DNA of 64,000 bases from Escherichia phage vB_EcoS_HASG4: sequence record NC_100331.1, one strand, 5' to 3'. The stretch's first letter is position 1; each line of letters opens with the position of its first letter. A model generated the notes under the pieces. The model was given only the letters and a program-made list of their open reading frames with translations. It was not told the origin of the DNA and searched no databases. A program made the position numbers and the translations under genes. This document shows, in pieces, positions 3,797 through 64,000 of the stretch.

Positions 3797-6586
3797 GTGT
3801 TTTCAATCCTACAAGGTCATGCAGGATTTCATCGCGATTTAGCCACAGGCAATTGGCGAGAAGTTAAAGCAGAAGACTATCTTTTTGCTAAAAGATTTTC
3901 CTCAAAGCATCCTGAAGGTAAACCAGCTTCAATGCCCTTCAAGTTTGATGTAATTGACGAAATTGATCCTCAAACCCTAGTAGAAATGCTTCCTCTTATG
4001 AGACGTTTAACGTCTGACCCTCATATCGTTGCGGTACGAGGTCGATGTCTTGCACCTAAAAATAATGTGCGACGTAAGAAGGGCAACTTTAATGTATCTA
4101 ATCCAAGTCATATAATCGCAATGGATGTGGATGGTATTGTAGATACAGGAGGTTGTAACAAGTTTGATCTTGTTGGTATGGCTCGACATATTATTAGGAT
4201 GTTAAATAGTATTAGTGAGGATATGTTTCCTCTTGATGCAGGGTTTATTGCTCATGCATCATCTTCGGCTGGCCTAAAACCAGGTATCCGAATGCACTTA
4301 ATACTAGAATCTAATGTTAAAGTTACACAGGGTCAGATCAAGTTCTTATTTACATCTATCAACGAAAGTAGTAGACAAAAGTATGGCTTTGATATTGCCG
4401 ACTTAGCTTATTACTCCTCCGTACAGCTTCATTACTTTGCAGATCCTTTATTTATTGATGGTATAGTCGATCCGTTTAAAGCGGAGGGTGCTTCACGTCT
4501 GGTATTTGTTAAGGGTTCGAAGGTAAATTTGCCTAATAATCTAGTTGACTATGAAACAACTAGAGGTGAGTTTAAGGAGGAGTTCTATTCTTTACTCGAC
4601 CAAATTAAAGGTAAAAAAGCTGCCTCTGATAAAGTAGAGGAAACTATCAGCGAACTAGAAGAAGCTGAGGATGGAGTGTATCTACGTATTATTCCAAAGC
4701 TATATCACCGAGCGCTAGAGGATGGAGTAGATTTTGGTTGGCTAGAAAAAGAAATCCGCCCAGCTTTATCAGAATATATTGCAACTAAAGATAATAGCCG
4801 TAATATTCAGGATTATTTCAATAACGGACGGAAGCAGGCATTAAAAGCCTTTGTGAATAACTCTAAGCGTGAGATCCCTGAAGTATTAAAAGGTATCCCC
4901 CTTAAAAAGCTAGAAACTAATTCACTAGAGACCGACAACTTCTTGAAATTAAATACTGTACCACCAGAAGGTTATATGACTTTTGTAAAAGCAAGTCTAG
5001 GTACAGGTAAAACTACGGCGGTTGTGCGTTGGTTAGATTCAGGAGTTATTAAGGGTAATTTCTTAGCAATTACCAATACTCGAGCACTGGTATCTTCAAA
5101 TGCTAAGAAATTTAGTGCAGGACAATATGATAAGTCTGTAGATATGCTTAATTTTAAGCGTGGTGCTATTGACCGTATGTCCACAACTATTCACTCTTTG
5201 CATAAGTTCAAGAGTTTTATTGGTCAAATTGATGCAATCTTTATCGATGAATGTGATGCAGTAATGAATGACCTATTATTCGCCCCAGTTGTTAAGCAAC
5301 GTCGTGAGTGTATTCAGGTTCTTCGTGATATTCTTGCAACTGCAAAAATCATTATACTATCAGATGGTGATATTAGTGCTGAAACAATTGAAGCATATGG
5401 TTCTTTAATTGAGTTCGATAAACCAGTAGCATTTTACAATCATCACCGTAAAATGCTGTCAAAAGCTCATGCTTATGAGTTCCCTGATGAGTCCAGTATT
5501 TGGGTTGCACTTCAGACTTCTCTAGAGATGGGTGAGAAATCTATTCTAGTATCTGATTGTGGCCCTGATGAGCTTAATGAGAAGGGTATGGCACTACGTC
5601 GTAATACGGGTGCATTAGTTAAGGAAATCCATTCAAACTCTACCTCAGATGTGGATATTCGACGTATTCTGGATTACACAACTAATGAGTTAATTGATCA
5701 ACAAATTGATTGCTTATTATGTAGTCCATCCGTAACGAGTGGAGTTGACTTCAACTATTTTGATAACGTATTTGTTATTACTAGAACCAGTAATCAAGCG
5801 CCAAACATGCGTTTCCAAGCAATCAGGCGCGACCGTGGTGCTCAGAATATCTATTATTTTATTGATAAATCCACTAGTGGATTCTCCGCAGGTTCTGAAC
5901 AGTATAACATTGATGAGGGTTGGCTGGAGTTAGCACAGCAATTATACGCACGTCGCAGGGAGCTGGAATCTAGGAACTATACTAGTACTTTACGTTATTA
6001 CTTGCTTGATCAGGGTGCAACTATTGATATTTTCAGCGAAAGCTGGGGAACTATTGAAGGTGCTGGTAAAGAGTACACAGAAGAGCGAATTAAAGCTATT
6101 CTACATTCAACTCCGGATTATTGTGCTCCACGTCATGCGGATGCGTATGAAGCTAAGCTACTTCTTGTTCGCTATTATCATCTTGAGTCTATTAAAGATG
6201 TAACAGTTGAGCATGTTGAACAATATATCAAGGATAAACCGAATGATCGAGCAGCATTCTTCCATAAAATGCACGCGATGTTCTGGGAAGATATTAAGAA
6301 GTGTTCAAATGTCACTATCAAACCTTTCATAGAAGCTCTGAAAGGTAAGAAGAAAGATTTCTTCCTTAAAACAGGTCAGAGTGCTAACCCAAAATATGCG
6401 AGAATGTATCTTGGTATGATGGGTATTGGTAAGGATATGAACACTGAAAATATTGTAGACTGGTACAGAACCTATTGTAAAATCGAGTGTATGCCAATTC
6501 CTTATAAGTTCATGACTGACGAGGAAAAACATATGCATGATGAAGCAATGTCAGAGCTAGGTGCTAGAAATGACAGTGAAGAATAA
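3797..6586 (+). CDS. large ATPase, helicase-like (Walker A GTGKTT, Walker B IDECD); possible replication-initiation/origin-binding helicase
   Basis: Long ORF; likely GTG start at 3797 with AGGAG 6 nt upstream (track start 3719 is TTG). Motifs KASLGTGKTTAV and IFIDECDAV; N-terminal region has an IIAMDVDG acidic motif. Confidence 0.6.
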   Translation: MFSILQGHAGFHRDLATGNWREVKAEDYLFAKRFSSKHPEGKPASMPFKFDVIDEIDPQTLVEMLPLMRRLTSDPHIVAVRGRCLAPKNNVRRKKGNFNVSNPSHIIAMDVDGIVDTGGCNKFDLVGMARHIIRMLNSISEDMFPLDAGFIAHASSSAGLKPGIRMHLILESNVKVTQGQIKFLFTSINESSRQKYGFDIADLAYYSSVQLHYFADPLFIDGIVDPFKAEGASRLVFVKGSKVNLPNNLVDYETTRGEFKEEFYSLLDQIKGKKAASDKVEETISELEEAEDGVYLRIIPKLYHRALEDGVDFGWLEKEIRPALSEYIATKDNSRNIQDYFNNGRKQALKAFVNNSKREIPEVLKGIPLKKLETNSLETDNFLKLNTVPPEGYMTFVKASLGTGKTTAVVRWLDSGVIKGNFLAITNTRALVSSNAKKFSAGQYDKSVDMLNFKRGAIDRMSTTIHSLHKFKSFIGQIDAIFIDECDAVMNDLLFAPVVKQRRECIQVLRDILATAKIIILSDGDISAETIEAYGSLIEFDKPVAFYNHHRKMLSKAHAYEFPDESSIWVALQTSLEMGEKSILVSDCGPDELNEKGMALRRNTGALVKEIHSNSTSDVDIRRILDYTTNELIDQQIDCLLCSPSVTSGVDFNYFDNVFVITRTSNQAPNMRFQAIRRDRGAQNIYYFIDKSTSGFSAGSEQYNIDEGWLELAQQLYARRRELESRNYTSTLRYYLLDQGATIDIFSESWGTIEGAGKEYTEERIKAILHSTPDYCAPRHADAYEAKLLLVRYYHLESIKDVTVEHVEQYIKDKPNDRAAFFHKMHAMFWEDIKKCSNVTIKPFIEALKGKKKDFFLKTGQSANPKYARMYLGMMGIGKDMNTENIVDWYRTYCKIECMPIPYKFMTDEEKHMHDEAMSELGARNDSEE

Positions 6587-6871: not shown

Positions 6872-7576
6872 ATGGCCGGTTCTCGCAGAAAGAAACATAT
6901 CCATGAAATCCCGGATGAAGTCTTTAAAAAGGTTATAGAGCATCTGGAGAACGGTGGTACCAAGAAAGCAGCTTGTGAAATGATCGGCGTATCATCCAAT
7001 CCGACTATGGAAAGGATGATAGAAGAGTGGCAAGATCGCCAAATTCAAGTTGCCGAGATGAAGAAAAAGAAACGTGGTACACTCATTGAAGGTATTGAGT
7101 TGGCCAACGTTATTGAACAATATCTATCTGGTGATTCTTTTGAAGAGATTGCCGATCGTAATTACCGCTCTGTAGCAATGGTTAAATCTGTTCTGGAACG
7201 CTATGGCGCTCTGCTTCGTTTGAATGATATTGTAGATCCATTGAATCCACCAATTATTCCTGATGATGCTGTAGCAGAAGAATTTGAGGTTGGAGAACTT
7301 GTTTGGGTTCCTGGATACCAGTGTATCGGTGAAATCAAAAAAGCAATGGATAATCCTGTTGGTTGCTATCGTGTATGGCTTCTATCGGAAGGCAAACAAC
7401 AGAACGTTCATTATATGAATTATGAGCTGGCTTCTGTTAAACATCTGGAAAAGTTAGGGGTAGACGTAAAATCTCTGGGGTACAAATGGACTCGGGAAGA
7501 AGTCATTACGTTGATTAACGAAGCTGTTAAGGCTGCCTTGAAACTTGATAAAGAAAAAGGAAAACGCCGTGAGTAA
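6872..7576 (+). CDS. putative DNA-binding protein (HTH-like N-terminus)
   Basis: N-terminal GGTKKAACEMIGVSSNPTMERMIEEW looks like a helix-turn-helix; basic C-terminus. Position is consistent with a T5 D5-type DNA-binding protein (from memory, unverified). Confidence 0.45.
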   Translation: MAGSRRKKHIHEIPDEVFKKVIEHLENGGTKKAACEMIGVSSNPTMERMIEEWQDRQIQVAEMKKKKRGTLIEGIELANVIEQYLSGDSFEEIADRNYRSVAMVKSVLERYGALLRLNDIVDPLNPPIIPDDAVAEEFEVGELVWVPGYQCIGEIKKAMDNPVGCYRVWLLSEGKQQNVHYMNYELASVKHLEKLGVDVKSLGYKWTREEVITLINEAVKAALKLDKEKGKRRE

Positions 7577-9112: not shown

Positions 9113-9385
9113 GTGAAAAAGATAAATATAAGTACACTTAAACCTTTTCCATATATCGGACAGCCTCTCATACTCATGTGGGAGGAAAAGATTAATGGGG
9201 AAAAGTATACTAAAACTAGAATTGGATATAAACTGATTTCACTTTATTACGAAAAAGAAGTATTAATAGCTGAAATATACTCTCCATTATCGGGCAGGCT
9301 AGTAAAAACTACATATTTGCATCTTTGCAAAAATTATACGTGGCACGGATCTACCAGACAACCCACGTACTATGAGGCAGAATAA
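9113..9385 (+). CDS. hypothetical protein
   Basis: ORF with GTG start right after the promoter/SD; no motif. Confidence 0.3.
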   Translation: MKKINISTLKPFPYIGQPLILMWEEKINGEKYTKTRIGYKLISLYYEKEVLIAEIYSPLSGRLVKTTYLHLCKNYTWHGSTRQPTYYEAE

Positions 9386-10357
9386 ATGACCAATGTAAAA
9401 GAATTTATTAAACGCTGTCAAGAAGCATATTATCAGGGTATGTCTTTAATCTCTGATGAGGAGTATGATTGCCTGGTAAAACGCTTCCCGTTAGAAGAAG
9501 AGATCGGGCCTAAGGGCGATATTCCACATCTGTATCGTATGTATTCTTTACAGAAAGTTTATTATAATCGTGGAGATAAACCCCCATTTAACCCATTAGG
9601 TCAGGTAGAAACTGACAAGTTAGATGGTTGTGCGATTTCTCTATTATATATTAATGGCGAATTTGTTCAAGCACTAACTCGTGGTAATGGTATTCTAGGG
9701 AATGATGTCACAAGCAACGTAAGACTGCTGAATATCCCTAAAAAGATTTCCCAAAAAGTACCAACTCAAATCACTGGTGAAGTTCTAATTACAAAAGAAG
9801 TAGAAAATAAACGTAACTTTGCCTCTGGTGCTATTAACCTCAAAGATAGCGATGATTTCGTACAACGTATCGGGGAAGGCGGTTTAATCTTCGTTGCATA
9901 CGGTATCCAGTGTTCTGCCGAATCTGTAGGTATTACAGAATCGTATTTAAAAGATATGCTTTGGCTAGAGAATGAGAACTTCTTAACAGTTGTTAATGTG
10001 CGTTCCTTCTTTAAATGGATTCCGACTGACGGTAAAGTTGTTCGTATTAATGACAACAACAAATTCTTCCGTGAGGGCTGGACAAATAAATTCCCTCGTG
10101 GAGCATTCGCCATTAAAGAGGATGAAGAAGGCGAAATTACAACTCTTACTAAAGTTGAGTGGCAGGTAGGGGCTTCTGGTAAAGTAACTCCAGTTGGCTA
10201 TTTCGAACCGGTAATTATTGATGATGCTACAATTGTTAAAGCGACTCTTAATAACGTTGATTATATTAACTCTCTCGATCTAGAGATCGGTTGCCAGATT
10301 CGAGTGATTCGTGCTGGTGGTGTAATCCCGTGTATAGTAGAGCGAGTATACGATTAA
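9386..10357 (+). CDS. NAD-dependent DNA ligase, N-terminal (adenylation/OB) subunit
   Basis: ETDKLDGCAIS carries the KxDG adenylation-lysine motif of LigA-type ligases; length fits the nucleotidyltransferase plus OB domains only. Confidence 0.75.
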   Translation: MTNVKEFIKRCQEAYYQGMSLISDEEYDCLVKRFPLEEEIGPKGDIPHLYRMYSLQKVYYNRGDKPPFNPLGQVETDKLDGCAISLLYINGEFVQALTRGNGILGNDVTSNVRLLNIPKKISQKVPTQITGEVLITKEVENKRNFASGAINLKDSDDFVQRIGEGGLIFVAYGIQCSAESVGITESYLKDMLWLENENFLTVVNVRSFFKWIPTDGKVVRINDNNKFFREGWTNKFPRGAFAIKEDEEGEITTLTKVEWQVGASGKVTPVGYFEPVIIDDATIVKATLNNVDYINSLDLEIGCQIRVIRAGGVIPCIVERVYD

Positions 10358-12116: not shown

Positions 12117-12150
12117 AAGGGGAGGGGGCTATGCTCCTTCCCCTTTTTGC
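12117..12150 (+). terminator. rho-independent terminator-like hairpin
   Basis: AAGGGGAGGGGG-ctatgc-TCCTTCCCCTT followed by TTTTG; overlaps the track's 12131 start, so that start is unlikely. Confidence 0.5.
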
Positions 12151-12181
12151 ATTTAGAAGGCACGAAAGCGTGCAAAGGAGA

Positions 12182-13654
12182 ATGACCTTGTTTAACGTGC
12201 AAGCTGTAGTGTTGAAGATGCTTCTAGCTTCCGAACAGAAGCAAATAGCATTGGAAACATTCTCAAAACTGCATAAAGATCATTTTAATGACGCTTTCTC
12301 CTCAATTTACCAAGCCGTCCAGAATTATTATAAAAAATATAACACAATGCCGTCCATTGACGCACTTATGCTTGAAGCTAATAGGAACGCCCGCCTTTCT
12401 CAAGCTCTAGTCGTCTTAGCTAACACTCAAATTCCAGAAGTGAGCATGGAACAGGCACTTGAAGTCCTAGAGGCCGAATATACACAGGATTTATTCCTGA
12501 AGCTTCTAGAAACAGACGTGCTTCAAGATTTAACAATGCTGGATCAGGGAGAAATTCTCAACCGAGTTGCCTCCCTTCACTTAAAATTAGAAGAGAAAGT
12601 AACGAATACTGGAAAAGTATTCAACGCAGATAACATGCGTATTTTCCAGAGAGAAGAAGATACCAAACTGAATTTAATCGCTCTTGGTATTTGTAATGAG
12701 TTCGACGCTCAAATTGGTTTAGCTCGCACAGAAACGTTACTGCTTGGTGGTTGGCGTGGTACTGGTAAATCCATTATCTGTTCAAACATACAGGTTCAGC
12801 AATATTTGAATGGAGATATTGCTCCATACTTCTCAATTGAGATGAAAGAACATGAAGTATTTAGACGTAATCTAGCCATGTTAGCTGGTGTATCAGCACT
12901 AGCAATGCGTAATAATACTCTAGAAGGTGCAGCTCTGTTGAGATTAGCCAGAACTAGAGCTAGGATGTTTAACGGTGGTGAAGAGCTTTTCGATAACTTT
13001 GTTAAACAGTACACAATGGCTAAGATGAGTGATTTCTACGATATGGAGAGTAAGCTAATAGAGGGATATGAACTACATACTCCTATGATTATCGTTTATG
13101 ACCCTGAACTGTCCATTACAACAGTTGATGTAGAATTAAATAAATTAGTTGCTAGATATGGTGATAAAGTTACAGTAGCTTTACTGGACTATATTAACCA
13201 AACCCGACTTCCAGATTCTAAAACCATTGATATGTATGACTGGAAAGAACAGATGGTTGTTAGCTCGTCTTTCAAATCCATCTGCCAGAAACATAACGTG
13301 GCTGGTGTAGCTCCTTACCAGATCGATCAAGATGGTAGAACACGTATGTCAAAGGGGATTCTTGATTCCGCAGACATGGCTGCTAATCTTAATGCTGCAA
13401 AAGCCGATAATGGTCAAGGTGCTATTATGTTTGACTTCGTTAAGACTCGTTCTTCTGATAGCGTGAAGTTTATGCCTAAGATGAACTGGGAAACCTTGCG
13501 GATGGATAACACTACCAACCTAGCAATGGAAGATATATCTCAAATGGAAGCTGAGTTCGTTATCCCTATTGAGAAGGATAAGCCGGCTCAACCTAAACGT
13601 GCTAAGAAAGACAAAACTGAAAATTCAACAGGTGAACAGGCCAGCGATATATGA
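12182..13654 (+). CDS. DnaB-like replicative DNA helicase
   Basis: Walker A GGWRGTGKS; H2-like motif VALLDYINQ; RecA-like C-terminal domain. Start uncertain (ATG 12182 or 12218). Confidence 0.65.
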   Translation: MTLFNVQAVVLKMLLASEQKQIALETFSKLHKDHFNDAFSSIYQAVQNYYKKYNTMPSIDALMLEANRNARLSQALVVLANTQIPEVSMEQALEVLEAEYTQDLFLKLLETDVLQDLTMLDQGEILNRVASLHLKLEEKVTNTGKVFNADNMRIFQREEDTKLNLIALGICNEFDAQIGLARTETLLLGGWRGTGKSIICSNIQVQQYLNGDIAPYFSIEMKEHEVFRRNLAMLAGVSALAMRNNTLEGAALLRLARTRARMFNGGEELFDNFVKQYTMAKMSDFYDMESKLIEGYELHTPMIIVYDPELSITTVDVELNKLVARYGDKVTVALLDYINQTRLPDSKTIDMYDWKEQMVVSSSFKSICQKHNVAGVAPYQIDQDGRTRMSKGILDSADMAANLNAAKADNGQGAIMFDFVKTRSSDSVKFMPKMNWETLRMDNTTNLAMEDISQMEAEFVIPIEKDKPAQPKRAKKDKTENSTGEQASDI

Positions 13655-53693: not shown

Positions 53694-53858
53694 TTGGGAA
53701 ATCTCGAAATTTCATAAGATTACACATGGAGGTGTGCTCACTGCCTCCGGCGGAAATACTTAGTCTGCTAACCGCCACCCTCCGTTACTATTACCATGCT
53801 AACTGTTTCACCCTGCAACCATTTTAATTGCAAGGTGAAACAATTTCAACTTTAATTG

Positions 53859-54593
53859 TTAGGCAACTTTTAATTTCTCAATATATTGTTGCGGGCTGCA
53901 ACTATATTCTGCGCGTTCTTCCTCGGTCATACTTTCCCAACATAATTGCAGGCGGTCGGCTAGAAATTGATAATCATTATCATCCTCAAGAGATTCATCA
54001 ATAAAGGTTTCACCTATCAATGTAACCCCAATCGATAGAATATCGTTAATAGCTTGCGCGTCCAGCGTTTTAAATCCGTATGATGCCGCCGCTGATAGTA
54101 CGCCTTTATGATCATCAATCATCGTAAAATCAGCGTTAGGATATAACTGTTTAAATAGCTCAAAATAATGGCTTTTATAAATAGCGTCTTTACTGTGGTA
54201 TATTTCGCTAACTTTATCAGCTTCAAAATATTTGTGTAGTGTATCGCGGGAAAACACGCGGATATTGCTTTTATCACGACCGCGCAAGCCTTGTTTGCGC
54301 AAGAAATAATAATCCGACTTGCTCATCAATCGAGCGGTGCAAATAATGTTTAACGTGTTAACGTCATTCATGCACTGGCGCATATATGTAACAAGCGGCA
54401 ATAGTGTATCTTGCATTATTAAATCATGTTTGCAGGCTTCATTTTTATACTTATTTAAATCTAAATTGCCCTCACTATCAAAGCAAGGCGCTACACGATG
54501 GAAAGAGTTAATGATAGTGCCATCCAGATCCCAAATCATGACGCGGGAAATATGTGGGAAGCTGCGGGAAATATTCATAATAGCTTTATTCAT
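53859..54593 (-). CDS. dmp: HAD-family 5'-deoxyribonucleotidase (dmp-like)
   Basis: N-terminal MIWDLDGTIINS carries HAD motif I DxDGT; 244 aa, the size I recall for T5 Dmp. Confidence 0.6.
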   Translation of the reverse strand: MNKAIMNISRSFPHISRVMIWDLDGTIINSFHRVAPCFDSEGNLDLNKYKNEACKHDLIMQDTLLPLVTYMRQCMNDVNTLNIICTARLMSKSDYYFLRKQGLRGRDKSNIRVFSRDTLHKYFEADKVSEIYHSKDAIYKSHYFELFKQLYPNADFTMIDDHKGVLSAAASYGFKTLDAQAINDILSIGVTLIGETFIDESLEDDNDYQFLADRLQLCWESMTEEERAEYSCSPQQYIEKLKVA

Positions 54594-54672
54594 TTGTTAC
54601 GTTCTCCATTAAAGGGATTAGATTAATTCAGCATTACCCGCTATTTATAAGCGGGTAATAATAAATTAACTA

Positions 54673-55068
54673 TTAAAGACCATAAGCCAACGCATCAGCG
54701 ATAAAACTAACATCCTCACCGGATACGCTGGAACGAATCCCGGCACAAGTATATACCTTTGCGCTGATCAATTGATCATCGAGGCAAGCGGGGCAAGGCG
54801 CAACCACTGCGAAAGCTAAACCGGATTTTACCGCGTCAATAATAATTGTTTCCTGCTTCATCGTGTCAACATAAACACCTTTTGCTTTAATATGGCTGGT
54901 TAGTTTACCTTGCATATATGCAAACGTTGTAACTTGCATTGCATCATTGAAATCTAACAATTCATCAATAACGTGCCCCGCCTCGACGTGGTAACGTTCA
55001 CCATTAGAATAAACCAGAACAATGGAAGACTGAGCGCGGTCAAATGGAATGCGATTAGATTTAGCCAT
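54673..55068 (-). CDS. hypothetical protein
   Basis: Intact ORF with the conserved leader upstream; contains HVE and PCPAC but with non-canonical spacing. Confidence 0.4.
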   Translation of the reverse strand: MAKSNRIPFDRAQSSIVLVYSNGERYHVEAGHVIDELLDFNDAMQVTTFAYMQGKLTSHIKAKGVYVDTMKQETIIIDAVKSGLAFAVVAPCPACLDDQLISAKVYTCAGIRSSVSGEDVSFIADALAYGL

Positions 55069-55105
55069 GTTTATAACTCCAGTTAGTTTAATAAGGGGGT
55101 TTAAT

Positions 55106-55363
55106 TTACTTGATAATAATCTGCATTTGATATGGCGTTAATTCACCATTTACGGGTAAATTATTATCACTCAACCACTCATAAAAAGCGTCATCATCGT
55201 CAAAGGGAACAATATCATTATCACGATAATCGACCGTAATAATCCCATCTGTATTAGTTTTGGCGGCTAGGATAGGTCCGAAGCTGTAAACTTTATCGGA
55301 TTCCATTTCATCCGGTGAAATAAATGCTTTTTCGTCCAGCGTTTTGGGTAATGTAACTTTCAT
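55106..55363 (-). CDS. hypothetical acidic protein
   Basis: 85-aa ORF, Asp-rich. Confidence 0.35.
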   Translation of the reverse strand: MKVTLPKTLDEKAFISPDEMESDKVYSFGPILAAKTNTDGIITVDYRDNDIVPFDDDDAFYEWLSDNNLPVNGELTPYQMQIIIK

Positions 55364-55420
55364 TCTAATTTAGCTCCTGTAATAGCGGCTATATTTCAAG
55401 CCGCTAGGGGAATAATTTAA

Positions 55421-57085
55421 TTACGCGAAAAATTTACCATTCTTAAAGTCAATCAAGGTGCGCTGACCGTTTGCATAGGTAATAACATGCGTTTGTGTCC
55501 AGCTTGACGCGCCAACGTTATAACCCATGTCCAGACTACCAGACACGCCAGCGGTGTATACGCCGCCGTAAATACTGGCGGTATGAGTGTGCCCCGTGTT
55601 TAATTTGCCCAATTTCTTAAACTGTTTCGGATTGCCACGGCTGCCGTTTATGCCGTTGTGACCGTGTACGCCGCATTCAATGCCTGCAATCTTGAAAGAT
55701 TGATCAGTGGTCAGAAAAATAGCGTTAAACTCACAACCTGCAACCTTACGCAGCGCATAATCTAGCACGTTGAAAGTATCGTCTTTTTCTGCAATAGCTC
55801 CATAAATCGCAGCATTAAGGCGGTGATATAGTTCCGCGTTTGCTGGGTCGTCTTTAATGTTAGCATTACGATCATCCAGCCAACGGGATAGCGCCAAATC
55901 GTGGTTTGATTCAACAATGATCGTTTGAGCAAAATCGCGCTCCATCGATTCCAGCACGCGCCCGGTATCGATAAGATCATCCAGAACTTTATCACGTCCG
56001 GCGGCGTATTGTTTCGCTAGGAATACACCGGAGGCACGATTATGATGATTGCGTGATGTAAAATCATGCACGTCATGGACGAATTGATATTTTGGCTTGA
56101 GAATATCAAGCAAGCTATTTTCCCCAGCCCATGATGCAACGGCGCAAGCGTCATCCAATTTTTCGGCGTGGACGTCGCCATATTGTAAACCTAAAACGTG
56201 CCCCGATGTTTCATAGCATCCGGCGGGAGTAGCGCAAACATTCAGATCATAAAATACGCCGCTTTCATCCATCGTTTCAAGCTGGCGAACAAAAAATTCT
56301 CCGTCTTCGTCGAACTCGACAATAAGCGCACCGAAGTTATGCAGCGCCTCGGCCTTTTGTCCTGCTTTCTGCTGGATGTAGTTTTTTAACGTTGCCGTTC
56401 CGGTTGAATACATACGGCGCACAATTTCACCTTTTAAAGCTGGCACGCTTTCAGCGGTAATTTTAGCCGCTCCGATTGCCAGACCTTCGAGATTAAGCGC
56501 GGTTGCAGTTTCAGCGAATCCAGAAAGCGGATAATCTGCGGTGGGCAAAACATTAATTTCAGCCATGAAAGCAAAACGGCGATTGTTTAAAAATACGTTT
56601 TTGCTGCAAATATATTTATCAAACGCAGAATCATATTTGATTCCGTCTGCCCCTTCCCCATTTTGAAAACCGTTTTTATTATAAATATACTTAGAAACAA
56701 GCAAATCAGCGCCAATAAATTGGGCATATTGTTCAAGCGAGGCTAAAAAGTTTTTATGCGGGAAAGTATTATTCTGAATCGATGTAATAATAAAGCGTTT
56801 GCCTTGTTTTACTTCCCATTGCTCCACCGTGCTAGAAATAACTCCAGCGGCTTCAGGGCGGTCATCGTTTTTTATGGCTTTTGCTGTTTTTGCCGCTTTT
56901 GGTTTCGCTGGTTTATTTGCTTCCAACCAGTCGCAGATAGCGGTCGAGTGTTTTGTAGTATCGTATACCGCTTTTGATATATCGTCGCAGACTTCCAGTT
57001 TAGTAGCGCGCAGACGTTTACCATAGAAATTAAAGTCAGCGGCAAGGTTGAGAATCTGGGCTTGTTTTTCTGCGGAAATAATCAT
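55421..57085 (-). CDS. A1: A1-like pre-early protein, calcineurin-like metallophosphoesterase
   Basis: Phosphoesterase-type motifs GDVH, SNHD, GHTHT; 554 aa, close to what I recall for T5 A1; conserved leader upstream. Confidence 0.6.
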   Translation of the reverse strand: MIISAEKQAQILNLAADFNFYGKRLRATKLEVCDDISKAVYDTTKHSTAICDWLEANKPAKPKAAKTAKAIKNDDRPEAAGVISSTVEQWEVKQGKRFIITSIQNNTFPHKNFLASLEQYAQFIGADLLVSKYIYNKNGFQNGEGADGIKYDSAFDKYICSKNVFLNNRRFAFMAEINVLPTADYPLSGFAETATALNLEGLAIGAAKITAESVPALKGEIVRRMYSTGTATLKNYIQQKAGQKAEALHNFGALIVEFDEDGEFFVRQLETMDESGVFYDLNVCATPAGCYETSGHVLGLQYGDVHAEKLDDACAVASWAGENSLLDILKPKYQFVHDVHDFTSRNHHNRASGVFLAKQYAAGRDKVLDDLIDTGRVLESMERDFAQTIIVESNHDLALSRWLDDRNANIKDDPANAELYHRLNAAIYGAIAEKDDTFNVLDYALRKVAGCEFNAIFLTTDQSFKIAGIECGVHGHNGINGSRGNPKQFKKLGKLNTGHTHTASIYGGVYTAGVSGSLDMGYNVGASSWTQTHVITYANGQRTLIDFKNGKFFA

Positions 57086-57183
57086 GGTAATAAAACTCCA
57101 TTAAAGGGATTAAAAAACGTTTGTTATTGGCAAATATTGCCAAATATAACGCCTATTATTTGAGGCGTTATAATTTGCAATAT

Positions 57184-57399
57184 TTAACTAATCGGCATCA
57201 GGCTAGAACTAACACCACAAGCAACGGCGGCAATAAAACAAATAAGACCTAAACGCTTTGCTAACTTAGATTTACGTTTAAAATAATATGAATCCAGATC
57301 ATTTTGGAAATAAGCAAACAATAACGAGGCCGCTACAATAAATAATCCTAGAATGAGGGATTCAGTAGGGTAAAAGATCATTTTAATAACTCCAGTCAA
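57184..57399 (-). CDS. small membrane protein (two hydrophobic segments)
   Basis: 71-aa ORF between the A2-like and A1-like genes. Confidence 0.35.
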   Translation of the reverse strand: MTGVIKMIFYPTESLILGLFIVAASLLFAYFQNDLDSYYFKRKSKLAKRLGLICFIAAVACGVSSSLMPIS

Positions 57400-57437
57400 A
57401 GGAAATTATAGTGGGGAGTATTCCCCACTAATTAAAT

Positions 57438-57845
57438 TTATTCACCTGCGGCCTGTTTTACTTCATCGGCAACGCCCAATAGTTGCGCCACGGCGTCCAA
57501 CGTTTCTAATTTTGCGCTTTCCAGTGATGCCAGATCGTCAACGTCTTTGATAATACCGGAATCGATGGCATGTTTTGCAATAACGCGCACATAATGCGCT
57601 TTGCGGATAGAACTGCCGCCGCCAACCTTGCGAGGTTTATCGCTTTTCTGATACGCTTTCGCGCTGGTCAATTTTGAGCGAACGGACACGGGAGAAGCCG
57701 CACCTACTGCTTTCGCGATCTCTTTCAAGCCGTCGCTATTTGCGAAATCTAAACCGTTTTCATTGATTAGCTGCTGATACATGGTAACAGCCTGCTGGGT
57801 GTTTTCTTCATTCCAAGAAAATTTTACGGTTTTAACGTTAGTCAT
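57438..57845 (-). CDS. A2: A2-like pre-early protein
   Basis: 135-aa ORF immediately upstream of the A1-like gene; size and position match T5 A2 as I recall it. Confidence 0.45.
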   Translation of the reverse strand: MTNVKTVKFSWNEENTQQAVTMYQQLINENGLDFANSDGLKEIAKAVGAASPVSVRSKLTSAKAYQKSDKPRKVGGGSSIRKAHYVRVIAKHAIDSGIIKDVDDLASLESAKLETLDAVAQLLGVADEVKQAAGE

Positions 57846-57943
57846 GGTAAAAACTCCTATTAGTTTAATTTAAGGGATAAGATTAACATAATGTTAATCG
57901 TTATATACCCCGAACTACTGGGGTATATAAAGTTAACACTAAA

Positions 57944-58195
57944 TTACAAAACAGCTTCCCATTTTTCGTTGCGTTGAACAACCTTTACAACATCGCCGGA
58001 TTTAACGCGAACGCTAAAAACGGTTTTGCCGTTGTTACTGCGTTCCGTTTCAGCGTATACCGCGTCGATTGTATCGAACGGCATAAGCGCCGCACCTTTA
58101 ATGCGTTCGGCCTTTCCGGTTAACTCATCCGTTTTAGTAACGAAAGGAATAAAAACGGATTGACCAATTTTTGGCGCGGTAATAACGTTTTGCAT
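57944..58195 (-). CDS. hypothetical protein
   Basis: 83-aa ORF with the conserved leader and AGGAG SD. Confidence 0.4.
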   Translation of the reverse strand: MQNVITAPKIGQSVFIPFVTKTDELTGKAERIKGAALMPFDTIDAVYAETERSNNGKTVFSVRVKSGDVVKVVQRNEKWEAVL

Positions 58196-58422
58196 AGTAT
58201 AAACTCCTAGTTATTTGGGGATTATTCCGCATTACCTGCTAGAAGGTAGCAGGTAATAAGTAACAATCCGCTCGCCAGTTTAACCAATTTAAAGAACTCC
58301 ACGTAGGCCGCTATATCCCAGTTAGGGGGCGGGATGCATTATGGTAAGCACCGACCGTCAAATTTTATCAAGTTATCGCTCTTATCGAACTGAGTACATC
58401 TTAAAACCTATCGGCTAGGTTG

Positions 58423-58626
58423 TCAAACGGTTTTTTGCAATTTTTTATGATTTTCTTTCAAGTCAATCATAATATTTCGCCAGATCATTTCTAGACCTTG
58501 CTGGCGACCTCTCTTGTACTGCGTGAATCGGTATTTTACCGATCTTTGCGCTACTGTCAACAAATTTTTTGTTTTGCTATCTAGTGCCTTAATAGGCTTG
58601 CCAGTGATCAATAAAGTTTGTTTCAT
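58423..58626 (-). CDS. hypothetical small basic protein (uncertain)
   Basis: 67-aa ORF inside the large intergenic region; weak SD. Confidence 0.2.
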   Translation of the reverse strand: MKQTLLITGKPIKALDSKTKNLLTVAQRSVKYRFTQYKRGRQQGLEMIWRNIMIDLKENHKKLQKTV

Positions 58627-59256
58627 ATCGTCGATTCCTTATAATAGATAAGTTTACCGCCGATAGGCTTTAAGATGTACCCAATTTTTAAAGAGCGTGG
58701 CGGTAAACTTCCCGCCGTGTAGTTCGTCATTGCCGCCCTACGTGATAAATAATAGGGGATTCCCGAAAATGGCGCAACCTTATTTTTGTAAAGAAACGTA
58801 AAGACAAAATTCACCGGACGGCGTGCGGTGACGGCCTAAAATTAAAAGAAACGGGCGCGCGAATACCACAAAACAAAGCAAATAGGCAAGTAATTTTTTC
58901 ATTTATATTTGCTTTCCCCTACTTGACAAAATCTAAAAAGCTCGTGGTAGCGATAAACGGCTTATCCCCTTATGATGGGATGGCTAAAAACTTTATTGCG
59001 TTCTAGGGCGTTTTAGGCGGCTCATTTTCGATTTAACAAATATCTAACAAAAGCAAAATTGAAAAATAGTTGAAAAAGGTCTTGACTTTTAAAAATCAAG
59101 GGGCATTGCATTAATTTATAAAATAAATTAATTGACTTTTATTTGTTGTTGTGTATTAGAAAGATAGCAAACTAATAATTACTAGAATGATAATCATGCT
59201 GGTGGATTGTAACGGCTTAAATTATTAGCAGACTACTAATCCCGGAAAATCTCATT

Positions 59257-59310
59257 AGCCAACTAACTGTTTCATAAGTTATAATATACATATAAATTAA
59301 TGAGAAATAA
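59257..59310 (+). promoter_or_regulatory. promoter-like element of the T5 family (weak -35)
   Basis: GTTATAAT with TATAAT at 59280-59285, then ATACATATAAATTAATGAGAAA. Confidence 0.35.
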
Positions 59311-59419
59311 TAATTATAAGAAAACGTAACCGATAGGAATAATAACTATAAAAATAATCACTACTATAATAATAACTATAAGAAACTATCGGCCTAAGTG
59401 AGAACCACTATCATTTAAG

Positions 59420-59440
59420 TTATCCACAAAGTTATCCACA
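59420..59440 (+). promoter_or_regulatory. two perfect DnaA boxes (TTATCCACA) in direct repeat
   Basis: TTATCCACA at 59420-59428 and 59432-59440, just downstream of an AT-rich repeat tract. Confidence 0.6.
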
Positions 59441-59794
59441 GCACTTTTTGACTTGACACGATATGCGGCGATACAAGGACTTTTGCTCAGACTTACCCAC
59501 AGGTTATCCTACTGTATAAATATACAAGGTAAAAAGATAGTGTTAACAACTGCAATCAATTTTAAGCGGCCTAAATCGCTTTCTAACGAGCAAAACGCTG
59601 TAGGGTAATATTAAAGTAAAGCCTCAACGTGTCGGCCTGGTGGCTTCGCCGTGTTTTGCTCTTTACTATACCGCTGCGCGGTTAGCATAAAAATAAGCGT
59701 TAGGCAAGGAAAATAAAAAGGTAAAATAATATTTGCCCCTAGAAAGAAAATACCTTTATCATTCACTCACCGATTAACGAGGGAGGCCGAACAA

Positions 59795-60787
59795 ATGAGG
59801 CTTTATAAACCAGATAACGCAACCGTCTTAAAAGGTGCATTGCGCAACCTGCTGGATGGTAGCAGAACAACCAGCATTAAACATTTTGTTTTCAATATTG
59901 AAACACTTCATCGTAATTTTCTTGATGATTACGATGCTTATAATATGAATAGTTTTCTACCGTTATATAATCAAGGGGCAACGCTTGTTTTATATAATCA
60001 GGAATCTCACTTGCTTACTAGTCGAGGGCCAGATACTGATTTTATTATAGTGAAAGGCAGTACAGTAAAAGCCTATGATGCGGGGGCGGGCTTAGAAGTT
60101 TTCACGATAGAAAATTATGAGCCTTATGATAAGGATCTTTATGACGTAGAAAATTTTCTCGATTCATTTTGGCGTTATTTATCAATTGGGTGGAATCGGT
60201 CGGATTATGACGGGTATCGTTTTGCGGCTGTAATGGCTTTTGATGATAACGGTAATTTTTTGTTACCGTCGGAATTATACCCGTATGTATATAATGATTT
60301 AATAGAGGAGGCTGGTTTTACTTTCTGGAAAGATGAAGATCAGCCTATTGACAATATAGAAAACCATGCTGTAAATTCTAACACTCAAAGCGTTAACACT
60401 CAAACTACTGAAAACAAAGGAAAAAATACCATGACCAAGATCGCTAATATCGTTGCCGCTAATAAATCCGCTGTTGTAAATGCTGCAAAACTGGAAGCGG
60501 GTAAAATTGCACTGACTCAAATCACGAAAGTAGCGGCTAAAAAAGCGCCGTTTATGATTAAAGGTTATATTGATACGCCGATTGGTCGTGTAGTGATCGC
60601 TAACCTATTGAGTGTAGCGGTTGACCAGTACGCCCCAACTAACCAAAAGGCAAAAGCGGTAGCAGGCGCGGCTATGGAAGCGGCAATGCTGGAAATGGTG
60701 CAAAGTTTTAACATCGCTGAAATGATTGATGAAATGGTAAAAGGTATCGATATTTCTACTTTTACCACTAACACCGAAAGCGAGTAA
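59795..60787 (+). CDS. hypothetical protein
   Basis: 330-aa ORF with GAGG SD; first gene of a rightward cluster. Confidence 0.45.
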   Translation: MRLYKPDNATVLKGALRNLLDGSRTTSIKHFVFNIETLHRNFLDDYDAYNMNSFLPLYNQGATLVLYNQESHLLTSRGPDTDFIIVKGSTVKAYDAGAGLEVFTIENYEPYDKDLYDVENFLDSFWRYLSIGWNRSDYDGYRFAAVMAFDDNGNFLLPSELYPYVYNDLIEEAGFTFWKDEDQPIDNIENHAVNSNTQSVNTQTTENKGKNTMTKIANIVAANKSAVVNAAKLEAGKIALTQITKVAAKKAPFMIKGYIDTPIGRVVIANLLSVAVDQYAPTNQKAKAVAGAAMEAAMLEMVQSFNIAEMIDEMVKGIDISTFTTNTESE

Positions 60788-60852
60788 TAATATTTAGCGG
60801 GGATTATTTCCCCGCTTTACTATTCCCTTGTTAACTAATAGGAGGCTAACTA

Positions 60853-61347
60853 ATGGCTGAGGAAAAATACGGCTTCTCGCTAGGGGAAGTGAGCACGGCT
60901 AAACACGATATGATCATTTTAGTTGATTGTCATACTGGCTATTGCGGGGAAGGGAACACCGAAGAATATTTTGTTCCTGCTGGTACGGATCTGGACGCTT
61001 TAGCTCACGAAATGGCTATGGATAATGCTTCTCGTTTTGGCAGCGATGGCTATGAAGACGAGGATACTGGCGAATGGTATGAAAATGAAAACGTATACGC
61101 AAGTCTTTATCATTATCAGTTAAGTAAATCCGGCACATATGTAAATGGCGGCGATCCTATTAATTCCGTTGTGAAATTAATTATTAAATATGGTGGCGTC
61201 GAGATAATTGATAACAAAGCGGTAATATATGCAAACCGATTAAAACAGCTTGTTTATATTCCTGATAATACCCGATGGGAGGAATACGCTGTTTTGCATG
61301 ACGAATTGAAACGATGTTTCAATATTGAAGCCCTACAAGTAGTCTAA
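60853..61347 (+). CDS. hypothetical acidic protein
   Basis: 164-aa ORF with AGGAGG SD; Asp/Glu-rich. Confidence 0.45.
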   Translation: MAEEKYGFSLGEVSTAKHDMIILVDCHTGYCGEGNTEEYFVPAGTDLDALAHEMAMDNASRFGSDGYEDEDTGEWYENENVYASLYHYQLSKSGTYVNGGDPINSVVKLIIKYGGVEIIDNKAVIYANRLKQLVYIPDNTRWEEYAVLHDELKRCFNIEALQVV

Positions 61348-61452
61348 TGTAAAGTTTTGTAAAGGTCGCCTTTTATGGTGGCCTTTTTTGTTATAATGCC
61401 TTTACACCAAAACGGTGGATTGAAAATTTTCCCAAAAATTTGGAGGCTTAAA

Positions 61453-61683
61453 ATGGTTGCATACTCTTCTGCTAGTCATCTGTTTACCGCGCAAGGCTGG
61501 GTATCTAATCGCGTCATTATTCATGAAATGGTGCAGGAGTTCGGCATTGCTAAAACGTATAATACCATTCAGGAACTATATAACGCCGATAAAATCGATC
61601 AGCAAACGGCTGGCTTTTTGCTGGATACCCTGAAAGCTGAACATTGCACTAAAAAGCAAGCTGCAAAAATTGTCTTAATGTAA
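61453..61683 (+). CDS. hypothetical protein
   Basis: Internal ATG at 61453 with GGAGG SD; the track's 61375 start lacks an SD. Confidence 0.4.
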   Translation: MVAYSSASHLFTAQGWVSNRVIIHEMVQEFGIAKTYNTIQELYNADKIDQQTAGFLLDTLKAEHCTKKQAAKIVLM

Positions 61684-61736
61684 TTAATAACGGGGGGGGG
61701 GTATTATATCCCCCGATAACTAGGAGGCTATCACAA

Positions 61737-61886
61737 ATGGTTATTTTTCGAGCTATTTTAGCGGGTATCTTGGGCGCTATTTTATCGTTATTTGCAATAG
61801 CTTTCGGTGTTCACGCCGTTATTATCGGCGCGGGTATCGCCGCATTTTCTTATCTGCTGGGCTGCATGACTAGTAAAGGAGAATAA
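61737..61886 (+). CDS. small membrane protein (49 aa)
   Basis: TAGGAGG SD 9 nt upstream; two hydrophobic segments; preceded by a G10 tract. Confidence 0.4.
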   Translation: MVIFRAILAGILGAILSLFAIAFGVHAVIIGAGIAAFSYLLGCMTSKGE

Positions 61887-61888
61887 AA

Positions 61889-62101
61889 ATGATTCGTAAC
61901 GTTTCCCTTGCACGTTCGAAAGGCTTTAGGCTGGTGGACGTTAACACGTTCGAGCGTGAAGATTGTAAAATCGAATATGTAGCACGTAACAAAAATGCCT
62001 TTCGTGTTACTGAGAAAAAATTCGACAAGCGCGGCAACGTGATCGCTGAAACAGTTAAACATTTTGCCACCTTTTATGCTGCGTTTCGTGGGGTATTATA
62101 A
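61889..62101 (+). CDS. hypothetical protein
   Basis: 70-aa ORF with GGAG SD, immediately after the previous stop. Confidence 0.4.
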   Translation: MIRNVSLARSKGFRLVDVNTFEREDCKIEYVARNKNAFRVTEKKFDKRGNVIAETVKHFATFYAAFRGVL

Positions 62102-62102
62102 A

Positions 62103-62447
62103 ATGGTTATTTATGAAGGCAACCGCTTTGTTACTAATTGCCGTCCGGCATTACTAGCAAACTACTTAAATCAGCTTTCCCCAGCTTATAAGGGCGTTAT
62201 TAATATTTATGAGGGCAAGGCGCATTATAAAATCAATGCGGTCGTTGCCCGTGAACTAGCGTTTCAATTTTTGACCTTTGCATCTTGTGACGTTCAGGTC
62301 ATGGGTGAGGCATTAATTGCAGAAAATGAAGATGATTTTATTAATATTTTCCGCAAGATATGCACCGAGCGCCTGATCATGAAAGGCGCTTATATTCAAT
62401 CCACTGCGGATAGTATTGAAACAGCGTTTCGAAAGGTGGCACAATGA
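62103..62447 (+). CDS. hypothetical protein
   Basis: ATG at 62103 directly after the upstream stop; 114 aa. Confidence 0.4.
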   Translation: MVIYEGNRFVTNCRPALLANYLNQLSPAYKGVINIYEGKAHYKINAVVARELAFQFLTFASCDVQVMGEALIAENEDDFINIFRKICTERLIMKGAYIQSTADSIETAFRKVAQ

Positions 62448-62602
62448 AAAAGTTTTTAATAGCTGGTATGTTTCCTTTGTTGCCTTATGTAATTTGCTGG
62501 GCTTTATATGCTCATGGTGCTAGTGTTCCCGGTGTGGCTTCATTTGGTGTATCGGCTGGTTTTCTAACCGGACTATTGGCAAGCGTATATTTACGCAAAT
62601 AA
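62444..62602 (+). CDS. small membrane protein (52 aa)
   Basis: ATG overlapping the upstream stop; two hydrophobic segments. Confidence 0.35.
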   Translation: MKKFLIAGMFPLLPYVICWALYAHGASVPGVASFGVSAGFLTGLLASVYLRK

Positions 62603-62620
62603 TTAATAACGGGAGTTATT

Positions 62621-62824
62621 ATGAGCAATAAAATTATTGTAACCAAAATCAGTACAATGGTTGATGTTTTTTACGTGCCCGATACGCCGGAGAATCGGCA
62701 AGCGGTTGAGCGTGGCGAGTATGATAAAGTGATTTATGATCACGATGGTTATTATCAGCATTTGGCGGATTCCTACGGGGAGGAGGAAAAAATCACGCAT
62801 CGACTACCGGAGGAGGATTTATGA
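62621..62824 (+). CDS. hypothetical protein
   Basis: 67-aa ORF with GGGAG SD. Confidence 0.4.
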   Translation: MSNKIIVTKISTMVDVFYVPDTPENRQAVERGEYDKVIYDHDGYYQHLADSYGEEEKITHRLPEEDL

Positions 62825-62925
62825 AACGATGGTTTAATCACTGGTATAAACGGTTTTTAGTACGCCGTCGCAAGTCTAGGCATCAAGATGAGTGGAGGGA
62901 GTGGGCAAAGCGTAACGGTTGCCCA
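62821..62925 (+). CDS. hypothetical small basic protein (uncertain)
   Basis: 34-aa Arg/Trp-rich ORF overlapping the previous stop. Confidence 0.2.
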
Positions 62926-62975
62926 CTACTATAATAATCACGGGGCGCAACTAGTAAGAAGTGCCCCCAATTCTC

Positions 62976-62996
62976 AAATGAGAATCATTCTCATTT
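62976..62996. repeat. perfect 21-bp palindrome AAATGAGAATCATTCTCATTT
   Basis: Read directly; the two 10-bp arms are exact reverse complements around a central C. Confidence 0.8.
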
Positions 62997-63190
62997 GACC
63001 GCGCCCGCGATGATTAGCCTGCTAATGGTTAGGGTGTTACGTGTCGCCTTGTGTGATCGTTAGCGTGCTAACTAATTTTCAAGCCTCCTCCAATTTTCCC
63101 CTTGTTTTAGTATCCCCGCCAAAATTAAACGCGTTAGAATGCGATTCAGGACGTTTTAAGCCTATATTAGAATTATTCACTGCATAGGAA

Positions 63191-63210
63191 TACTGTATAT
63201 TTATACAGTA
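63191..63210. promoter_or_regulatory. LexA-box-like palindrome TACTGTATATTTATACAGTA
   Basis: Fits CTGT-N8-ACAG with an all-AT spacer; one mismatch to TACTGTATATATATACAGTA. Confidence 0.5.
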
Positions 63211-63222
63211 GAATAACCTGGG

Positions 63223-63301
63223 GATAAGTCTGTGGATAACGCTTCAAAATGGCTAGGGTTCTGTCAAGTCAAATCGTGCTGTTGATAAGTCTGTGGATAA
63301 C
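63223..63301. repeat. exact 18-bp direct repeat GATAAGTCTGTGGATAAC x2, each with a DnaA box (TGTGGATAA)
   Basis: Copies at 63223-63240 and 63284-63301. Confidence 0.75.
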
Positions 63302-63332
63302 TTAAATAACAGTGTTTCTCACTTCCGTTTTT

Positions 63333-63500
63333 AAATGCGAATCATTATCATTCGCATTTCACTAGCTAACCGATAATCACTCCACTTTTTAAATGAGAAT
63401 CATTTCACTTCTTGAATAGTTCTCATTCCCTTTCTTAAATGCAAATCATTATCATTCGCATTTCACTTTTTAAATGAGATTGATTCTCATTATCATTCGC
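63333..63500. repeat. cluster of palindromes built from AAATG(C/A)GAAT half-sites
   Basis: AAATGCGAATCATTATCATTCGCATTT (63333-63359), AAATGAGAA...TTCTCATT (63391-63427), AAATGCAAATCATTATCATTCGCATTT (63437-63463), AAATGAGATTGATTCTCATT (63472-63491). Confidence 0.75.
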
Positions 63501-63533
63501 ATTCAGGCGAGCAAGGCAATTGCCCTGCGCTTT

Positions 63534-63757
63534 TGTGCAAATCCGACATTTGCCCCCATGGATTACGCGTGGGCATGTATGTGCGAATCCGACAATTTTT
63601 GGTAGTGTGCAAATCCGACCCGAAAAATTTTTATAGTGTGCGAATCCGACAATGAATTTTCCTAAAAACTCCAGCAATCACGAACTGCGTTCGAATCCTG
63701 TGGAATTAGCTAGAGTATGTGCAAATCCGACATGTGTTGAGCTGTGCGAATCCGACA
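63534..63757. repeat. six direct 15-bp iterons TGTGC(G/A)AATCCGAC(A/C)
   Basis: Copies start at 63534, 63580, 63606, 63637, 63718, 63743; spacings 46, 26, 31, 81, 25 bp; a degenerate copy (CGTTCGAATCC) near 63690. Confidence 0.8.
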
Positions 63758-64000
63758 AGATTTTTGTGACTTCGATTGGAGGGTGTGTGATTGTATAGGT
63801 TTGAGGAGAAGATGAGAGAGCGAGAGAAATTTTGGGACTAGAAGGATGTGGGCGCAAGATTGGTGCGGAGCACCTGATTTGCGGGGATTTTGGGGGAGAG
63901 TTGAGATAATTTGGGAAGATTTGAGATAGGTGCAGAAAAAGTAAAATTTTATTAGCTAAATGGAGCAAAATAGCTTGACAAGTGAAAATTCTTGTGGCTC

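Follow-up and report, generated by a model that had tools for sequence, protein, structure and literature searches.

A LexA-type box beside DnaA boxes in the injection-stop region of T5-like phages

The terminal repeat at the right end of the genome of Escherichia phage vB_EcoS_HASG4 (NC_100331.1) contains, at positions 63191-63210 of the 64,000-nucleotide stretch analysed here (hereafter the window), the palindrome TACTGTATATTTATACAGTA. It has a CTGT-N8-ACAG core with a spacer made up entirely of A/T, and matches the LexA consensus TACTGTATATATATACAGTA at 19 of 20 positions. An earlier note on this DNA had described it as a near-consensus LexA (SOS) box, and its exact coordinates, its core, its all-A/T spacer and its single mismatch were all confirmed. 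As a sequence observation, the box is real and far beyond chance, and its identification as a LexA box appears strongly supported by its score, its conservation across the phage family and its pattern of natural variation. We consider it probable, from comparisons of sequence, that the box is a selected, high-affinity site for the LexA protein of the host, which would form, with the adjoining DnaA boxes, a LexA/DnaA module bordering the injection-stop region; we infer LexA, rather than another protein, to be its ligand. The element itself was already known as palindrome D (palD) of the T5 injection stop signal (iss), and what appears to be new is the recognition of it as a LexA box and of its conservation in those members of the family that were examined.

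Sequence and score of the box

Within three mismatches of the LexA consensus, TACTGTATATTTATACAGTA was the only match on either strand of the 64-kb window, and none of 100 dinucleotide shuffles of the window gave any such site. The bare CTGT-N8-ACAG pattern was found three times in the window, as compared with 0.64 occurrences expected. The other two copies (12776-12795 and 13107-13126, with cores from 12778 and 13109) are 330 bp apart inside a 507-aa ORF (12131-13654), contain G/C in their spacers and score 12-13 bits, and are probably chance matches.

Scores were obtained with a LexA position weight matrix (PWM) built from 25 E. coli operators, five of which, those of lexA (two boxes), recA, umuDC and sulA, were confirmed base for base at the expected MG1655 promoters. 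The box at 63191 scored 25.4-25.7 bits, as compared with 12.6-23.4 bits for all 25 operators in the matrix, and the next-best unrelated site in the window reached 14.9 bits. For sites of 19 bits or more, the expectation is 0.02 per window, and the scan found no site above 15 bits outside the terminal repeats in the whole genome of phage vB_EcoS_EASG3 (see below).

Like the SOS operators of E. coli (recA, umuDC, sulA, dinD and lexA), the phage box is a 20-bp palindrome of the form TACTGT-(AT)4-ACAGTA, with a score equal to or higher than that of the strongest chromosomal ones, and the degenerate positions that vary are shared between both groups. It shares with Gammaproteobacterial LexA operators the match to core and consensus, a score in the operator range, and conservation with variation at degenerate positions. 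Unlike the chromosomal operators, however, it overlaps no recognisable promoter and has no gene to repress, and it lies in the non-coding terminal-repeat DNA of a virulent phage, always paired with DnaA boxes.

Genome setting and neighbouring elements

Escherichia phage vB_EcoS_EASG3 (MK373799.1; Demerecviridae, Tequintavirus) shares 100% identity with the window over the final 1.1 kb, a segment matched by 443 records of the phage collection. The final base of the window is also the final base of MK373799.1, so that the window represents the right 64 kb of the genome, with the right copy of a terminal repeat of around 10.2 kb occupying positions ~53774-64000. The left copy of this repeat is identical, with the LexA-type box at record position 9418; being inside the terminal repeat, the box is thus present in two copies per genome. 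The poly-G tract at 61685-61697 (around 61692) differs by one base in length between the window and the right-repeat copy of MK373799.1, and the two sequences are identical throughout to the right of it.

Genes and repeats in the terminal repeat of the window are laid out as in T5. Positions 53859-58814 contain a leftward pre-early operon with dmp, A1, A2 and other genes; next come a divergent control region rich in repeats (~59250-59790) and a rightward, second pre-early operon (59795-62934), to the right of which stretches a long region of non-coding repeats. The phage, a Tequintavirus, is virulent and T5-like. The earlier remark that no obvious gene lies downstream of the box was borne out, because the last plus-strand ORF ends at 62934 and nothing is annotated from there to the end of the genome; in the left-repeat copy, a further 1.46 kb is likewise free of annotation.

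The region around the box is homologous to T5 9140-10149, annotated as 'iss', and to the T5 elements palD, IRD', DRB and IRC', which places it in the T5 injection-stop-signal region, or Repeat Region 3. The T5 homologue of the box, TACTGTATAAATATACAGTA, is annotated as 'palindrome D' (9330-9349 of AY587007.1, the Hangzhou T5 record) and overlaps the start of 'inverted repeat D'' (9332-9372), inside the injection stop signal of NC_005859. The order of elements is the same in the T5 iss and in the window: palD, IRD', DRB, IRC', DRC, nick and DRD. Repeat Region 3 of T5 has been described as an IRD'-spacer-IRC' unit with paired DnaA boxes, followed by DRC/palE-J, the 7.9% nick and DRD, and Repeat Region 2 as containing the inverted partner, IRC-spacer-IRD; LexA and SOS are absent from that description (Davison 2020, bioRxiv 10.1101/866236). 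In this literature palD stands as an unexplained palindrome, or at most as a candidate cleavage site for A1, and only the DnaA boxes have been interpreted. Papers of 2023 and 2026 present the T5 region as repeats plus DnaA boxes with a poorly understood mechanism. No link between LexA and T5-like phages was found in the accessible literature, a scope that leaves out Heusterspreute 1987, Wang 2005 and Davison 2015.

The box does stand next to DnaA-box repeats, as the earlier note had also claimed, with DnaA boxes at 63219-63227, 63231-63239, 63280-63288 and 63292-63300. The first pair (63219-63239, minus strand), TGGGGATAA gtc TGTGGATAA, is the reverse complement of the TTATCCACA type; a gap of 8 bp separates the LexA-type box from its first 9-mer, and a weak GGATAA unit overlaps the right arm of the box. 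Around 50 bp beyond it, the second pair (63280-63300, minus strand), TGTTGATAA gtc TGTGGATAA, forms a direct repeat in IRC'. The IRD'-spacer-IRC' inverted-repeat unit of Repeat Region 3, delimited by an inverted-repeat search and the T5 annotation, spans positions 63193-63323 (T5 9332-9462) and starts exactly at the CTGT of the LexA-type box, the box being the left edge of IRD'.

A partner LexA-type box is located 3.7 kb upstream, at 59509-59528, at the end of IRD in Repeat Region 2. In this phage the partner, TACTGTATAAATATACAAGG, is degenerate, with one arm changed from CAG to CAA and a score of 16.7 bits. Its T5 counterpart is an intact CTGT-N8-ACAG site, CACTGTATAAATATACAGGG, of 21.0 bits, so that T5 contains two boxes per repeat, of 25.7 and 21.0 bits, and nearly all relatives also have the partner intact, as CCCTGTATATTTATACAGTA. 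The inverted unit IRC-spacer-IRD (59396-59508) lies between the divergent pre-early operons, and the DnaA boxes of this inverted partner are perfect at 59420-59428 and 59432-59440 and have one mismatch at 59493-59501. The two LexA-type boxes face each other across the rightward pre-early operon.

The homologue of the T5 major nick site, CCCTGCGC, maps to 63523-63530 by its identity to T5 9661-9668, annotated as 'major single-stranded nick 1, 7.9%'. It lies 313 bp to the right of the box, which places the box and the DnaA boxes some 310 bp inside the first-step DNA; the nick homologue marks the border between first-step and second-step DNA only approximately. Also inside the first-step DNA are the Fur-box-like palindromes or DRC repeats, such as AAATGCGAATCATTATCATTCGCATTT (63333-63503). 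A repeat search and the T5 annotation located six DRD repeats, TGTGCRAATCCGACA (63534-63761, plus strand), just to the right of the nick homologue, on the DNA that is left outside during the pause.

Conservation and natural variation

We scanned IMG/VR with a pattern consisting of the two DnaA units alone. In this DnaA-anchored census, each of the 55 distinct T5-like modules had (C/T)TG-N10-CAG at an identical offset, and none of 26 clusters of DnaA boxes from unrelated phages had it. DnaA-box arrays are widespread in phages, and their fusion to a LexA box is specific to the T5 family. Many of the unrelated IMG/VR contigs (loci L042-L117) had GGATAACCTGTGGATAAGTCTG-type DnaA arrays with T5-like spacing and without a LexA box. 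A separate pattern scan of IMG/VR for the box plus GATAA gave mostly chance matches in coding sequence, and added only the second boxes of My1 and of a Klebsiella phage.

In Klebsiella phages FZ41 (Sugarlandvirus) and K7, Enterobacter phage KKP_3711, Pectobacterium phage My1 and phage Eos, the box and the DnaA pair persist next to a diverged left flank. BLAST homology in these phages begins at or near the box, which reads TACTGTATATTTATCCAGTA, TACTGTATAAATAACCAGTA or TACTGTATAAACATACAGTA, and the spacing from box to DnaA pair shows no indels across Markadamsvirinae, Sugarlandvirus and Myunavirus. Weighted column entropy was 0.31 for the box, 0.35 for the DnaA units and 1.05 for both flanks, in an alignment anchored on CTG/CAG, which fixes those columns and makes the comparison partly circular, the spacer and the outer columns being free.

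More distant Demerecviridae were reached through homology to the A1 protein (31-41% identical), and comprised Proteus phage 1, Vibrio phages D332, JSF12 and Cody, and Aeromonas phage AhSzw-1, whose DNA cannot be aligned. Each of these five loci contained one to three sites of 19-24 bits, as compared with 0.00-0.01 expected per locus from permutations, although this evidence for conservation is partly circular because the sites were found with the PWM itself. The sites are in the pre-early region, either in non-coding DNA or under tiny 'hypothetical' ORFs, and most of them are 7-20 bp from a DnaA box; in the distant loci with two boxes, these bracket the second pre-early operon.

Boxes paired in this way are inverted to each other, lie 1.5-3.8 kb apart and usually have DnaA boxes each, and the second pre-early operon that they bracket is variable. 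They are found at 59509-59528 and 63191-63210 in the window, at 6373 and 9911 in locus L225, at 3393 and 4923 in L228, and at 7165, 10262 and 10939 in L226. Such bracketing pairs could indicate an insulated or looped domain.

The differences among 24 natural variants of the box were concentrated at the two outer positions and in the spacer at the centre, which are the low-information positions of the E. coli operators, and variability was negatively correlated with LexA information content (Spearman -0.66, p = 0.0015). CTG/CAG was lost only once among them. Variants with four or five differences hold 19-22 bits, as compared with an average of 8-11 bits for random variants with an equal number of changes, and two of the arm variants, ATCCAG and AACCAG, are frequently seen in genuine operators, e.g. 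those of uvrB, ruvAB and dinI. The changes are asymmetric and uncompensated, and disrupt the palindrome, favouring half-site recognition by a dimeric protein over a hairpin. Additionally, the A/T spacer flips its orientation between close relatives (ATATTTAT vs ATAAATAT), which argues against a strand-specific -10 element.

Candidate ligands and roles

The earlier note had left two options for the box, a host-factor site beside the DnaA boxes or control of a small transcript, of which the former is favoured by the sequence comparisons and the latter was not supported. In its most general form, the second option makes the box a classical SOS operator of an unannotated promoter, whose product, either a small RNA or read-through RNA crossing the DnaA boxes and iss, would appear only after cleavage of LexA. 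Such an operator would agree with the -10-like hexamers TATATT and TATAAA inside the box, with the minus-strand TTAACA-16-TATATT of the upstream partner (10/12, with the -10 inside the box) and with the TTGACA, TTGGCA or TTAACA found in several distant phages 5-20 nt after the promoter-region box. However, the best and only promoter-like match in a sigma-70 scan around 63191 was 9/12, which is at chance level; the candidate -35 elements near the box are not conserved among relatives, T5 and Epseptimavirus being different, and nor is the -35 of the 10/12 match at the partner. The flipping of the spacer among close relatives also stands against it, as does the fact that the annotated pre-early promoters of T5 (5847-5936 and 6331-6420) overlap neither box. 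An Rfam search at the 63191 box gave no meaningful family match, and neither a terminator nor an ORF was found downstream.

Known LexA operators overlap a promoter or neighbour an SOS-inducible gene, and no gene was found downstream of 63191 on either strand. With no conserved promoter and no target gene, the canonical function of LexA is absent, and the 63191 box is not the classical SOS operator of a gene; an operator of an unannotated promoter seems to us quite unlikely. Neither did we find a switch between lysis and lysogeny or for a toxin, the phage being a virulent Tequintavirus and the box having no gene under its control. The partner copy belongs to the divergent pre-early promoter region, the annotated promoters being about 200 bp away, whereas the iss copy has no conserved promoter. 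A classical operator role is thus unsupported for the iss copy, and possible for the partner copy, with its 10/12 minus-strand promoter match in this phage.

Alternatively, the palindrome could be the target of a pre-early protein of the phage, namely A2 or, following the restriction-like model of Davison, A1 as a site-specific nuclease. In that case, it would resemble a LexA box through mimicry or as a relic of its ancestry. PalD is indeed among the candidate cleavage palindromes, although only one of several (Davison 2020, bioRxiv 10.1101/866236). Both A1 and A2 are required for second-step transfer, A2 binds DNA according to its annotation, and its helical N-terminal domain could, in the predicted structure, be a helix-turn-helix. 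Moreover, the hosts are all Gammaproteobacteria with one LexA motif, so comparative genomics can neither separate host LexA from a phage protein nor show that the box tracks the LexA specificity of the host. The A1-like genes of Rhizobium phages, considered for such tracking, belong to replication modules of unrelated phages without a pre-early terminal repeat, making the comparison inapplicable.

Still, for an unrelated protein we would expect neither a 19/20 match to the LexA consensus nor variation at the positions that LexA tolerates. Pfam scans of the 18 pre-early ORFs detected no LexA DNA-binding domain and no DNA-binding family. The sequence of A2 (57438-57845, minus strand), whose precomputed family is PF26822, had no match in the PDB, and its AlphaFold model (pLDDT 84.5) consists entirely of helices, in two domains joined by a conserved basic linker (KPRKVGGG), and lacks a beta-wing; a fold search of this model against the PDB gave no significant match, LexA appearing at rank 36 with E = 4. 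The domain searches and, as far as a predicted structure allows, the fold search make a phage ligand less likely. There are about a thousand copies of LexA per cell, and host LexA would occupy such a site anyway. We therefore regard a phage protein as an unlikely explanation of the palindrome.

Two further readings dispense with a sequence-specific protein. A cruciform or hairpin that stalls DNA transfer by its structure would fit a perfect palindrome with 8-bp arms, situated among many palindromes proposed to form secondary structures, and the fold of the single-stranded DNA has a z-score of -2.6. However, this fold is weak (-4.9 kcal/mol), with an A/T-rich stem of 8 bp, natural variants (ATCCAG, AACCAG, GTATTT) unpair the arms without compensation, and conservation tracks the information content of LexA operators rather than the symmetry of a stem. 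We rejected the hairpin on account of its weak fold and its uncompensated variants, and give it very little credence. It is scarcely credible that the box owes its presence to chance, or that it was kept only as a part of the IRD/IRD' repeat homogenised by recombination. The core does lie inside the inverted repeat unit, but shuffles yield no such site, the box persists where the flanks of the repeat, or even all alignable DNA, have diverged, and boxes recur in distant loci where 0.00-0.01 are expected.

If the box is indeed a site for host LexA, a LexA dimer would bind to it as the first-step DNA enters the cytoplasm, with DnaA on the adjoining paired boxes, and together they would build a complex of host proteins around 310 bp inside the 7.9% nick. 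A second module would be established in the divergent promoter region, 3.7 kb upstream, with the second pre-early operon between the two. The action of the bound complex is speculative: most likely it would be a boundary or roadblock, or else an architectural element, with an occupancy depending on the state of the host chromosome. T5 destroys the host chromosome within minutes. Activation of RecA would lead to the loss of LexA, and the destruction of chromosomal boxes would free DnaA, so that the module could couple the destruction of host DNA to pre-early shut-off or to second-step transfer. We propose only tentatively, and with more doubt than confidence, that the site has a role in delimiting or timing events on the first-step DNA.

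A stronger proposal, which we consider a long shot, is that LexA and DnaA are part of the pause-and-restart switch of T5 injection, the phage using these two reporters of chromosome status to time the moment when 'host DNA is gone'. On the iss DNA that has just entered, the LexA/DnaA complex would help to hold the first-step pause, or insulate it from transcription; the chromosome destruction triggered by A1 would then activate RecA, causing self-cleavage of LexA and the release of DnaA from chromosomal boxes; and the remodelled complex would license second-step transfer or pre-early shut-off. RecA-dependent cleavage of LexA cannot be essential for infection, given that laboratory recA1 strains support the growth of T5. 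Likewise, the degenerate partner box of this phage indicates that at least that copy is dispensable.

The nearest chromosomal analogue of the module is the E. coli uvrB promoter/DARS1, whose LexA boxes are contiguous with DnaA boxes or overlap them, and whose two proteins either compete or bind independently of each other (PMC6015884). As there, a LexA box stands beside DnaA boxes in the phage, with a gap of 8 bp and a GGATAA overlapping the right arm. At uvrB/DARS1, however, both proteins repress defined promoters of a repair gene, whereas no promoter is evident here, and the phage module is duplicated as an inverted repeat around an operon; the likeness is one of arrangement.

Several mobile elements make use of LexA sites, including CTXphi, GIL01, coliphage 186 (tum), colicin operons and integron integrases. 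What they would have in common with the phage module is the borrowing of the SOS repressor of the host as a sensor of DNA damage. These elements are, however, temperate phages or plasmids, whose lytic, toxin or integrase genes have the box at their promoter, whereas the box described here has no promoter and belongs to an obligately lytic phage, in DNA implicated in genome delivery.

The stop of T5 after injection of 8% of its DNA, and its restart, have reportedly been a standing question since Lanni's 1968 model. The cis-acting stop signal of T5 has never been dissected genetically, and only the DnaA boxes have so far been proposed there as sites for host factors. A consensus-grade LexA box beside the DnaA boxes, in every member of the Demerecviridae examined, would bring in a second well-characterised host protein and offers a testable lead on two-step injection. 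Mutant hosts (lexA(Def) sulA, lexA3(Ind-) and recA), purified protein and ChIP reagents exist for LexA and editing of the T5 genome is now available, making the hypothesis directly testable. To our knowledge, no family of strictly virulent phages has been reported earlier to conserve a LexA site; if confirmed, this would be the first such case, and an example of LexA acting outside the repression of promoters.

Other repeated motifs of the terminal repeat

A motif of the type CGCTTAGAAYGC ... CTAGAGCGTTTTAGG, an imperfect repeat at 63125-63165 of the window, recurs 25-70 nt from LexA-type boxes, including those of distant Demerecviridae (L029, L032 and L225-L229), and may be a further protein site of the same module.

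Palindromes resembling Fur boxes, with the 7-1-7 consensus TGATAATNATTATCA, occur at 53968-53982, 62979-62993, 63336-63350, 63440-63454 and 63481-63495. A perfect match is located inside the 3' end of dmp and is also present in T5 (NC_005859, position 233), and the iss repeats (palC/DRC/palE-I) contain four matches with two mismatches each. Five of the six sites in the window with up to two mismatches lie inside the 10-kb terminal repeat. When up to three mismatches were allowed, the window contained 21 sites, as compared with 9.4 expected, and none of 100 shuffles reached 21. The T5 receptor, FhuA, is regulated by Fur. Beyond Tequintavirus, the distribution of these sites is patchy, being absent in the Vibrio phages and present in Klebsiella phage K7 and Aeromonas phage AhSzw-1.
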